Below, in pieces: positions 3,455 to 28,768 of a stretch of DNA of 64,000 nucleotides (within the stretch, counting starts at the first letter, position 1; each line of letters opens with the position of its first letter). The DNA comes from Heptranchias perlo. Lineage: Eukaryota. The position numbers and the translations under genes are program-made. The stretch spans positions 52,142,001 to 52,206,000 of the forward strand of contig NC_090344.1 in NCBI RefSeq assembly GCF_035084215.1. Reading direction: 5' to 3'. The notes beneath the pieces are model-generated. The model had not been told where the DNA came from. It ran no database searches and saw only the letters and a list, made by a program, of their open reading frames with translations.

Positions 3455-3605
3455 GAGCCTCGGTGCTTGGCAGATCCTGACTGTGGACCTGGGAAATTCT
3501 GCCTTACTTCTCGTCGTGAAGAACCCATCTGCACTGCTTGCAGGGGGCTAAGGAGACGGTGCCAACGGGATGCAATGTGCTGCTCAGGAAGCCACTGTTT
3601 AAATG
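3455..3605 (+). CDS. DKK4: Dickkopf-4-like, coding exon 2 (cysteine-rich domain 1)
   Basis: Hand translation: EPRCLADPDCGPGKFCLTSRREEPICTACRGLRRRCQRDAMCCSGSHCLN(D). Acceptor ttcttcag at 3447-3454, donor g|gtaag at 3606. 151 bp, phase 0 to 1. CRGLRRRCQRDAMCC matches the DKK4 CRD1 as I recall it. Absent from the ORF track. Confidence 0.93.
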
Positions 3606-3934
3606 GTAAGAATTCAACAGCAGCAGCATAAAGTTATACCAAACAGCACTGCTGGTGTGCCACATCAAAGTAAACTAGTCCCACTTTGCATTATAGCCTG
3701 AAAGGACTCCAGGTTCAAACTGGCTCCGACTGCTTTTGTGTGTCAGTCTGTCTGTGGTGAGGCTGGATTATTCCAGGTCTCTGCTCATTCCACTCTTTAA
3801 CAAGGCATTCGGAGGAGTGAGAGCATCTGGGACACCAAATACTAACCTGCTTCCTTCGGTCATCACGGGGAAATTGAGCACCTTGATTTTCTGATTGCCG
3901 TTATTTTGAAGCTAGGGTAACTAAAAAAACCATA

Positions 3935-4891
3935 TGAGATCCTGGACTTTATAAATAGAGGCATACAGTAAAAAAGCAAGGAAGTTATGATGAATCTTTA
4001 TAAAACACTGGTTCGGTCACAGCTGGAGTATTGTGTCCAATTCTGGGCACCGCACTTTAGAAAGCTGTGAAGGCCTTAGAGAGTGCAGAAAGATTTACTA
4101 GAATGATTCCAGGGATGAGGGACTTCAGTTACTTGGACAGACTGGAGAAGCTGGGGTTGTTCTCCATAAAGCAGAGAAAGTTAAGAGGAGATTTAATAGA
4201 GGTGTTGAAAATCATGAAGGGTTCAGATAAAGTAAATGGAGAGAAACTGTTCCCATTGGCGGAAGGGTCAAGAACCAGAGGACACAGATATAAGGTGACA
4301 TGAGGAAATACTTTTTTACTCAGCAAGTAGTTATGATAGAGTCATGGAGTCATAGGGTTATACAGCACGGATAGAGGCCCTTCGGCCCATCGTGTCCGCG
4401 CCGGCCATCAGCCCTGTCTACTCTAATCCCATATTCCAGCATTTGGTCCGTAGCCTTGTATGCTATGGCATTTCAAGTGCTCATCCAAATGCTTCTTGAA
4501 TGTTGTGAGGGTTTCTGCCTCCACAACCCTTTCAGGCAGTGAGTTCCAGACTCCAACCACCCTCTGGGTGAAAAAGTTCTTTCTCAAATCCCCTCTAAAC
4601 CTCCCGCCTTTTACCTTGAATCTATGCCCCCTTGTTATAGAACCCTCAACGAAGGGAAAAAGCTCCTTAGTATCCATGATCTGGAATGCACTTCCTGAAA
4701 GGGCGGTGGAAGCAGATTCAATCGTGGCTTTCAAAAAGGAATTGGATAAATACTTGAAGGGAAAAAATTTGCAGAGCTATGGGGAAAGAGCGGGGGAATG
4801 GGACTAACTGGATTGCTCTTACAAAGAGCCAGCACAGGCTCGATGGGCCGAATGACCTCCTTCTGTGCTGTAACCATTTTATGATTCTATG
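3935..4891 (+). mobile_element. CR1-type LINE 3' fragment, interrupted by an antisense LINE fragment
   Basis: RFTRMIPG...LRGDLIEV peptide and an atgattctatg tail. The host sequence resumes at 4676. Confidence 0.85.
4338..4675 (-). mobile_element. Nested CR1-type LINE 3' end
   Basis: ORF 4423..4734 (TRGHRFKV...FFTQRVVGVWNSLP) with a (ctatgact)-like tail. Flanked by ATGAT at 4333-4337 and 4676-4680. Confidence 0.85.
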
Positions 4892-5056
4892 AGTAGCCCG
4901 TTTCCATTTAGCGTCTGAACGCCAGTGTTAAAGTAATACAGGTTGGAAAGTCTAGGCCGTGTAGTCTGGTGTTACCCACTCATTTTTTGCTGAGGACCAC
5001 AATCTCAACCAATGTCTTGCTCAAGGTCCACCTTTGATATGATGCACCTCAGACTG

Positions 5057-5590
5057 AGGGGAGGGAGGGGAGGGGGGGGGGAGGGGAGGGGAGGGGAGGG
5101 GGGGAGGGAGGGAGGGGGAGGGGAGGGCGGGAGAGGGGGGGCCGGGGGAGGGGGGAGGGCGGGCCGGGGGAGGGGGGAGGGGGGGCCGGGGGAGGGGGGA
5201 GGCGGGGAGGGGGAGGGGGGGAGGGGGGGAGGGCGGGCCGAGAGCAGGGGCGGGGGGGGGGATGGGGCGGGCCGAGAGCGGCGGGGGGGAGGGGCGGGCC
5301 AAGAGCGGCGGGCCGAGAGCGGGGGGGGGGGGGGGAGGGGCGGGCCGAGAGCGGGGGGGGGGGAGGGGCGGGCCGAGAGCGGGGGGGGGAGGGGCGGGCC
5401 GAGAGCGGGGGGGGGGGGGGGAGGGGCGGGCCGAGAGCGGGGGGGGGGGGGGAGGGCCGAGAGCGGGGGGGGGGGGGGAGGGGCGGGCCGAGAGCGGGGG
5501 GGGGGGGAGGGGCGGGCCGAGAGCGGGGGGGGGAGGGGCGGGCCGAGAGCGGGGGGGGGGGGGGAGGGGCGGGCCGAGGGAGGGGGTCAC
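5057..5590 (+). repeat. G-rich tandem repeat (about 13 x gggcgggccgagagc plus G-run) at the LINE 5' end
   Basis: Read directly. Each unit carries a GGGCGG GC-box. Homopolymer lengths may be assembly-uncertain. Confidence 0.9.
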
Positions 5591-27500: not shown

Positions 27501-28424
27501 ATAAGATAACAGTAAACTTACCTTTATAACCTTCCTCTACTTCCTCCAACAGTATACTGTAAAATGACAGCTAAATCACCAGTTCCATGTGATGGCTGCA
27601 ATGCACCAGTGGATTATATGCAGCATATCAATATTTCCTGTATATTCTGAAAATAAACTAGAATAAACCTGCAATTCTGCACCAACAATATCAAACATCC
27701 ATGGTTTTTAATTCTGAACTGTCCAACTTTTAATTCATTGCAATACAATGTCTGCTGTATTTTAAGAAACAAGATAAATAAAGTAGGTATCCTAAGAACA
27801 GCACACACTGCACTGGTAGAGATGCCACATTATATTACAAATAAGTTGTATGGTGGTTTGCACCAATTGTACAGAAGCTGTGTTCCAAGTACTGCTGCAA
27901 ACAACATACAGCATTCACAACCTGTGAGACACACAATGCCGTAGAGAACCAGGTGAGAGTGTAGTGTTACCCTCTATTCAACGTACGCCATATATACAGG
28001 AGCTATGACTCTCACACACAAACATTGAATAGTAAATGCTTGTGAAGGGTCAGCTTTTACCTGGTGTATACTGTACATTACACAAGGCAGACAGAGAGTG
28101 GGTCACTAAGATTTGGGTTGTTCCTTGTTGGCTTTGCAATGAGTTCCTAGCCATATAATCTATAAACGGTACTTACTCATTTATCAAACAAGCTAAAGGG
28201 CATTGTTTCGAAAATATCAATACAATTAACATTGGAAAAGGACCAATTTTGACAGTCATTGTAATTTGTCTTGTTTGAGTTGACCTATACATCTGCATCC
28301 CTTTGGTCTTGCTAGTTTTATAAACGGTATTGATTAATCAATCTTGTGTAATATTTGTATTTAATATTCTATTTTTATTCATTATTAAATGTCGCAATGC
28401 CACACCAATGTGTCTTCAAAGTGC

Positions 28425-28430
28425 TTTATT
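28425..28430 (-). terminator. Candidate POLB polyadenylation signal
   Basis: AATAAA on the minus strand (plus-strand tttatt) about 245 nt after the POLB stop. A second copy lies at 28374-28379. Confidence 0.55.
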
Positions 28431-28673
28431 GATATCACTGCACAGGACCTTATAGAAAGGCTGGTCTCTACAAATACATTTTAACTTCATGCACAATATA
28501 CTAGCCATATATGCATAAGCAATGTTCTGGAGTAAAGGAATTGGGAATTGAGAAATCCTTTTGAATATTTCACCTAGTTCTACACTTATCAGGACTCATC
28601 GCACTCTCATTCCCACAGAACTGCAGAGTACTTTTTGTGTAAAGAGATTCTGTGGGTGACCCTCAGGTGGCAT

Positions 28674-28768
28674 TCACTCACTTCGCTCTCTCGGCTCTCG
28701 ATATTGCCACTCGATGTAATCGAAGATGTCCTTTTCACTTTCCACTGGAAGTGGTTCACCTGGCACTC
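28674..28768 (-). CDS. POLB: DNA polymerase beta, last coding exon (exon 14 by human numbering)
   Basis: Minus-strand acceptor ttaactgcag. Encodes (G)[30 protein letters not shown], versus human [31 protein letters not shown]. 95 bp of coding sequence. Confidence 0.97.

Follow-up and report, generated by a model that had tools for sequence, protein, structure and literature searches.

We examined a 64,000-nucleotide stretch of the Heptranchias perlo genome (contig NC_090344.1, positions 52,142,001 to 52,206,000 of the forward strand; hereafter the window), in which an earlier note had proposed an intact gene for the Dickkopf (DKK) protein DKK4, lying tail to tail with the DNA polymerase beta gene POLB. 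Three DKK4 coding exons were located on the plus strand, at 3455..3605 (exon 2, 151 nucleotides), 14468..14635 (exon 3, 168 nucleotides) and 23570..23823 (exon 4, 254 nucleotides). Each is preceded by a pyrimidine-rich AG acceptor, and the first two are closed by a GT donor. When spliced, the exons encode 190 residues followed by a TAG stop (23821-23823) in one frame, and the other two frames carry 5 and 6 stops. Exon 2, the first in the window, contributes cysteine-rich domain 1 with nine of its ten cysteines; Pfam Dickkopf_N lies within it above the gathering score (E 2.6e-16), and its PDB matches are the DKK4 chains 9x64 and 5o57. Exon 3 supplies the last cysteine of domain 1 and a lysine/arginine-rich linker. 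Exon 4 encodes cysteine-rich domain 2, contains both of the Pfam DIKK1-2-4 C-terminal subdomains, and matches domain 2 of DKK1 and DKK2 in the PDB. The 20 cysteines of the product fall into two blocks of 10, giving the two domains, N-terminal and C-terminal, rich in cysteine and with 10 cysteines each, by which the Dickkopf 1/2/4 group is recognized. The splice boundaries and the open frame bear out the three phase-compatible, stop-free exons that had been proposed, and all of the motifs quoted at that time are present in the spliced product.

The opposite strand carries the end of POLB. Minus-strand exons at 57291-57227 (third-last coding exon, 65 nucleotides), 38403-38264 (second-last, 140 nucleotides) and 28768-28674 (last, with a TGA stop at 28676-28674) join without an internal stop. 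In the PDB, 38 entries matched by the last exon are polymerase beta (best E 6e-12), and the second-last exon contains Pfam DNA_pol_B_thumb (E 5.9e-11). The third-last exon was located via a short motif; it has AG/GT ends and is in frame with the next two. Six short motifs used to look for a further POLB exon in 57,300-64,000 gave four matches, none of them POLB-like. The two stops face each other across 4,850 bases (23824..28673), in agreement with the tail-to-tail arrangement and the spacing of about 4.85 kb given in the earlier note. The list of open reading frames shows no further host gene in this interval, and an Rfam search gave no match. The DKK4 exons are convergent with POLB, and the gene adjoins POLB as expected of a DKK4 orthologue. 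Human DKK4 and POLB are likewise convergent.

The spliced product is identical, letter for letter, to residues 40-229 of the NCBI protein XP_067857651.1 ('dickkopf-related protein 4-like', Heptranchias perlo; P0001 in our set). This identity agrees with the chondrichthyan source that had been supposed, and the existence of the record confirms the suspicion that automated annotation might already list the gene. The record differs from the window product by 39 extra N-terminal residues, which consist of a hydrophobic leader (a putative signal peptide) and an N-x-I-K motif. Exon 1, which would encode these 39 residues, had no credible match in the window in a tblastn search with 10 DKK4 proteins (N-terminus matches E 0.8 or worse), and likely lies upstream of window base 1. 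The description of the gene as intact thus stands for the three exons in the window; for the 5' end it stands by way of the NCBI model, the signal-peptide exon being outside the window. A protein search with the last exon returned 282 matches. Among the best 120, which were listed, the top 15 are chondrichthyan and come from 13 species including Callorhinchus, all bearing the name DKK4 or DKK4-like in one source or more; they are followed by DKK4 proteins of coelacanth, lungfish, paddlefish, sturgeon, bichir, caecilian, salamander, reptile and mammal. A gar DKK4 record was found in a further search. The shark DKK4 gene is therefore already known, being annotated, having many chondrichthyan counterparts and having its linkage in print.

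NCBI names the protein merely 'dickkopf-related protein 4-like', and a fourth Dkk1/2/4-type paralogue is present in sharks. The suffix might on these grounds hide a misassignment, with the window gene being a DKK4 look-alike that belongs to DKK1, DKK2 or the fourth paralogue. The maximum-likelihood tree that we calculated under LG+C20+F+G4 drew on 63 rows chosen by hand, namely the window product and 26 DKK4, 16 DKK1, 13 DKK2, 3 DKK2-like, 1 lamprey and 3 invertebrate sequences. P0001 (identical to the window product), four other chondrichthyan DKK4 rows and DKK3 were left out. The window product fell inside chondrichthyan DKK4 (support 99/99), which in turn lay inside a 27-row DKK4 clade (97/99), and a quicker tree gave the same placement. 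Shark and chimaera DKK1 and DKK2 each fell in their own clade. The root of the tree was poorly resolved (36/0), and its single lamprey protein (P0504) grouped with DKK1 (92/95); no lamprey DKK4 was found among the matches listed, and no search aimed at lamprey DKK4 was made. In a 34-row tree with teleost rows added, support for the DKK4 clade was 100/100. Approximately unbiased (AU) tests on 26 rows rejected trees in which the window product and four chondrichthyan DKK4 proteins were joined with DKK1 (p 1.4e-4), with DKK2 (p 2.3e-4) or with the DKK2-like group (p 2.9e-5).

Two sequence marks agree with this placement. The domain-2 loop is 14 residues long in the window product, in 10/10 chondrichthyan DKK4 proteins and in 15 of 16 from bony vertebrates; it has 13 residues in all 16 DKK1 and all 13 DKK2 rows. 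The run of six consecutive basic residues described for domain 1 of DKK1/2 (PMC6078440) occurs in 29/29 DKK1/DKK2 rows and in 0/27 DKK4 rows, and the window product reads RGLRRR at this position. The clade support, the three AU rejections, the two marks and the adjacency to POLB, which is reported for DKK4 in PMC10967326, together make a misassignment scarcely credible. The identification as DKK4 rather than DKK1 or DKK2 that had been proposed from motifs is upheld, and the maximum-likelihood tree that had been suggested as a check places the protein with DKK4 among the families included. As to the fourth paralogue, the DKK2-like proteins found in Mustelus, Latimeria and Protopterus make up one clade (100/95) that is sister to DKK2 (98/91) in the 63-row tree, and a Callorhinchus protein joins this clade in the 34-row tree (members P0126, P0138, P0139 and P0191). 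They appear to constitute a fourth Dkk1/2/4-type gene of cartilaginous and lobe-finned fishes, and may be the fourth copy left by genome duplication.

Human Dkk4 consists of two folded domains on a flexible linker. Its domain 2 binds LRP6 E1E2 and Kremen1 tightly, weaker binding to LRP6 runs through an N-x-I-(R/K) motif, and the protein is synergistic with Kremen against Wnt signalling (PMC6078440). The shark protein resembles this vertebrate DKK4 (human structure 5O57) in its two 10-cysteine domains, its N-x-I-(R/K) motif (in P0001), its 14-residue domain-2 loop and its POLB neighbour, and a 15-residue stretch, CRGLRRRCQRDAMCC, is identical to the PDB DKK4 chains. Since the shark protein keeps these parts of human Dkk4, the domains in the window and the motif in the NCBI model, the same mechanism is likely to operate in the shark. 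By analogy, the protein would be secreted, would bind Kremen and the LRP5/6 co-receptor, and would in this way inhibit Wnt/beta-catenin signalling; domain 2 would grip LRP6 E1E2 and Kremen1, and the N-x-I-K motif of exon 1 would make a weaker contact with LRP6. Domain 2 of the window product also retains the RHFW and EIFQRC stretches common to DKK1. Identity to three mammalian DKK4 proteins is 53-56%. The window product differs from the mammalian DKK4 rows in a longer, more basic linker and in reading HFWSKI (like DKK1) where those rows read HFWTKI; in the alignment, linker exon 14468-14635 is strongly lysine/arginine-rich across sharks. Chondrichthyan DKK1 and DKK2 have the same domain layout and 38-43% identity to the window product, but form separate clades and carry the 13-residue loop and the six-basic run. 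We hold with high confidence that the window gene, placed tail to tail with POLB, is the DKK4 orthologue of this shark, and that its product is likely a secreted Wnt/beta-catenin inhibitor that binds LRP5/6 and Kremen.

Several points weigh against this reading. The choice of rows for the tree was made by hand and did not take in DKK3, and the AU tests were run under LG+G4 without the mixture model. The loop mark has exceptions, with 13 residues in platypus DKK4 and 14 in one of the three DKK2-like rows. Exon 1 is outside the window, and that the 5' end is intact is taken from the NCBI model of 229 residues. Because the DKK family holds context-dependent activators (DKK2, as cited in PMC10967326), inhibition by the shark protein is inferred. 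The transcript data came from seven sequencing runs, each guessed to be RNA and none recorded as such, in the form of unstranded contigs with no tissue label. Four of the seven were compared, over 14200-29000 only, a range that does not include junction 3605/14468, and the 14635/23570 joint is not among the 15 of 338 joints that were listed.

Within this range, exon 3 is covered by contigs of runs X1, X3 and X4. Record 28 of run X4, which derives from a related organism, joins exon 4 at its letter 167, and the 166 letters ahead of this point correspond to exon 3 minus two ambiguous letters. Its depth of 40.9 is the same as that of the cover on exon 3. Record 17 of run X3 is similar and reaches 52 letters past exon 3, a stretch that may be exon 2. 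In run X2, record 16 spans the last exon of POLB plus 140 letters more, as many as the second-last POLB exon contains. Judged from record coordinates and depth, these contigs fit splicing of DKK4 exons 3 and 4 and of POLB. Some intron bins had no contig cover in the four runs, an observation that carries no weight. The remaining concern is that the gene is a non-functional or unexpressed remnant that happens to retain an open frame. Its start codon and promoter are outside the window, and contig cover in runs X1 and X2, whose contigs are identical to the window in exon 4, is low and broken up. A remnant is nonetheless very improbable given the short end branch of the window product (0.041), the retention of all 20 cysteines, the existence of full-length models elsewhere among sharks, in rays and in a chimaera, and the related organism's contig that fits the exon 3/4 splice. 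The DKK4 orthologue is likely functional.

The same contigs cover the interval between the two stops almost completely. Record 28 of X4 runs from exon 4 to 27469, record 29 of X4 spans 27485-28337, and record 16 of X2 spans 27704-28771. Judged from these unstranded contigs, the 4,850 bases are likely made up of the 3' untranslated regions (UTRs) of DKK4 and POLB. It is possible that the two 3' UTRs are long and abut or overlap, and that POLB has several poly(A) sites. Minus-strand AATAAA or ATTAAA hexamers lie at most 40 bases from the contig ends at 28411, 27704 and 27485; such hexamers are common in the gap region, with 13 on the plus and 11 on the minus strand.

The position of the window product within the DKK4 clade bears on the age of the gene. 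Because chimaera, sharks, rays and bony vertebrates share one clade, DKK4 would date at least to the jawed-vertebrate ancestor. This is the age that the earlier note had proposed for both gene and linkage. The tree supports it for the gene, and the linkage was already in print for a shark: section 3.3 of PMC10967326 reports conservation of POLB-DKK4-VDAC3 among human, Pelodiscus sinensis and Rhincodon typus. That block and the one described here are alike in having DKK4 adjoining POLB in a shark and differ in the species, Rhincodon typus there and Heptranchias perlo here. The orientation of the genes is absent from the text of that paper, and its tree species include no shark. With the window and this one paper on human, turtle and whale shark as its basis, the linkage too is likely as old as the jawed-vertebrate ancestor. 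We found no study of shark Dkk4 in the open-licence literature, where papers that use species names can escape a search (the whale-shark linkage paper never says 'shark').

According to the earlier note, DKK4 is usually discussed as a mammalian gene missing from zebrafish; the records show that it is not mainly mammalian. Named DKK4 entries exist for coelacanth, lungfish, sturgeon, paddlefish, bichir, gar, caecilians, salamanders and reptiles, chicken DKK4 has been studied (PMC13652249), and divergent teleost proteins nest in the DKK4 clade. The latter came from a search of 50%-identity representatives (171 matches, the best 150 listed), from which nine divergent DKK4-like proteins were looked up; six bear teleost names (Albula, Arapaima, Doryrhamphus, Solea, Sparus and Umbra). 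In the 34-row tree, the first five of these (P0184, P0217, P0232, P0235 and P0261) form a clade with long branches that is sister to gar DKK4 (100/97), and teleosts and gar together lie inside ray-finned DKK4 (100/99). All five read RYL in place of the RHF/LW of domain 2. Dickkopf_N is kept in Albula and Arapaima and had no match in the three percomorphs. On this phylogenetic evidence, a general absence of DKK4 from teleosts is unlikely. Dkk4 is stated to be restricted to mammals and reptiles in PMC6078440 (2018) and PMC10606412 (2023), and the excerpts of PMC7957263 and PMC8908630 add nothing on fishes. The tree offers a small correction to such statements, since DKK4 is spread across jawed vertebrates, and this wide distribution is under-recognised.

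Besides being an orthologue, shark DKK4 could be induced by Wnt and act at long range as the inhibitor behind the spacing of denticle or tooth placodes, a part proposed for Dkk4 in the skin of mammals. This extension, drawn by analogy, is tentative and in our estimation rather unlikely. Dkk4 marks primary hair placodes in the mouse and underlies the Ticked pattern of cats (PMC10903485, PMC8423757), a Turing-like system has been proposed for shark denticles (PMC6221541), and the shark protein keeps both domains. Against this, the denticle paper names bmp4 as the inhibitor and mentions dkk in a reference only (PMC6221541), and two catshark tooth papers report dkk1 (PMC9249395, 10.1101/2025.08.26.672487). 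In the eLife catshark tooth paper, the peptide read from the forward primer occurs in DKK1 of the catshark (P0449) and is absent from its DKK4 (P0007). DKK4 also has roles outside the skin, in turtle testis (PMC10967326) and in regression of the chicken Mullerian duct (PMC13652249), and three other Dkk1/2/4-type genes in sharks could take the spacing role. That other family members can act on teeth follows from the stickleback, where Dkk2 overexpression blocks new teeth (PMC10730089).

We counted TCF/LEF motifs in the window against 100 mononucleotide shuffles. The upstream part held 1 site, the two introns 11 and 10, and the gap 7, with 87, 8, 15 and 19 shuffles, respectively, scoring as high. 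Enrichment in the POLB region was no lower (37 sites; 2/100 shuffles as high), so the counts give no signal. A broader proposal, more speculative still than a spacing role in sharks, is that DKK4, as an ancestral Wnt-feedback inhibitor, set the spacing of odontode and skin-appendage placodes when jawed vertebrates first arose. In sharks the gene would have stayed intact and served denticle and tooth patterning, and teleosts would have retained a fast-evolving copy without the RHFW of domain 2, the percomorph copy also lacking domain 1. Such a history would explain why DKK4 has been labelled a mammal-and-reptile gene. Were dkk4 to mark the placodes of denticles, the Wnt/Dkk4 spacing module would go back as far as jawed vertebrates themselves. 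The shark evo-devo papers cited above examined dkk1, as the Wnt inhibitor, in teeth and bmp4 in denticles, and catshark dkk4 (P0007) is a ready candidate.

Some 30% of the window has a match elsewhere within it. A DDE_Tnp_4 transposase piece (53927-54427, plus strand, E 2e-25) belongs to a broken DNA transposon at 53486-57035 in a POLB intron. Beside it lie GC-richer minus-strand open frames that matched no Pfam family, and no clear terminal inverted repeats were found for the element, whose layout presumably resembles that of Harbinger-type transposons. RVT_1 reverse-transcriptase frames at 5813-7057, 8310-9473, 20828-21604, 44291-45901 and 62534-63562 are likely LINE pieces and lie in introns. 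Upstream of DKK4 exon 2, a tandem array at 1101-1954 comprises 13 copies of a 67-base unit with 94% matches, and the DKK4 intron after exon 2 contains a G-rich low-complexity tandem tract at 5056-5586.

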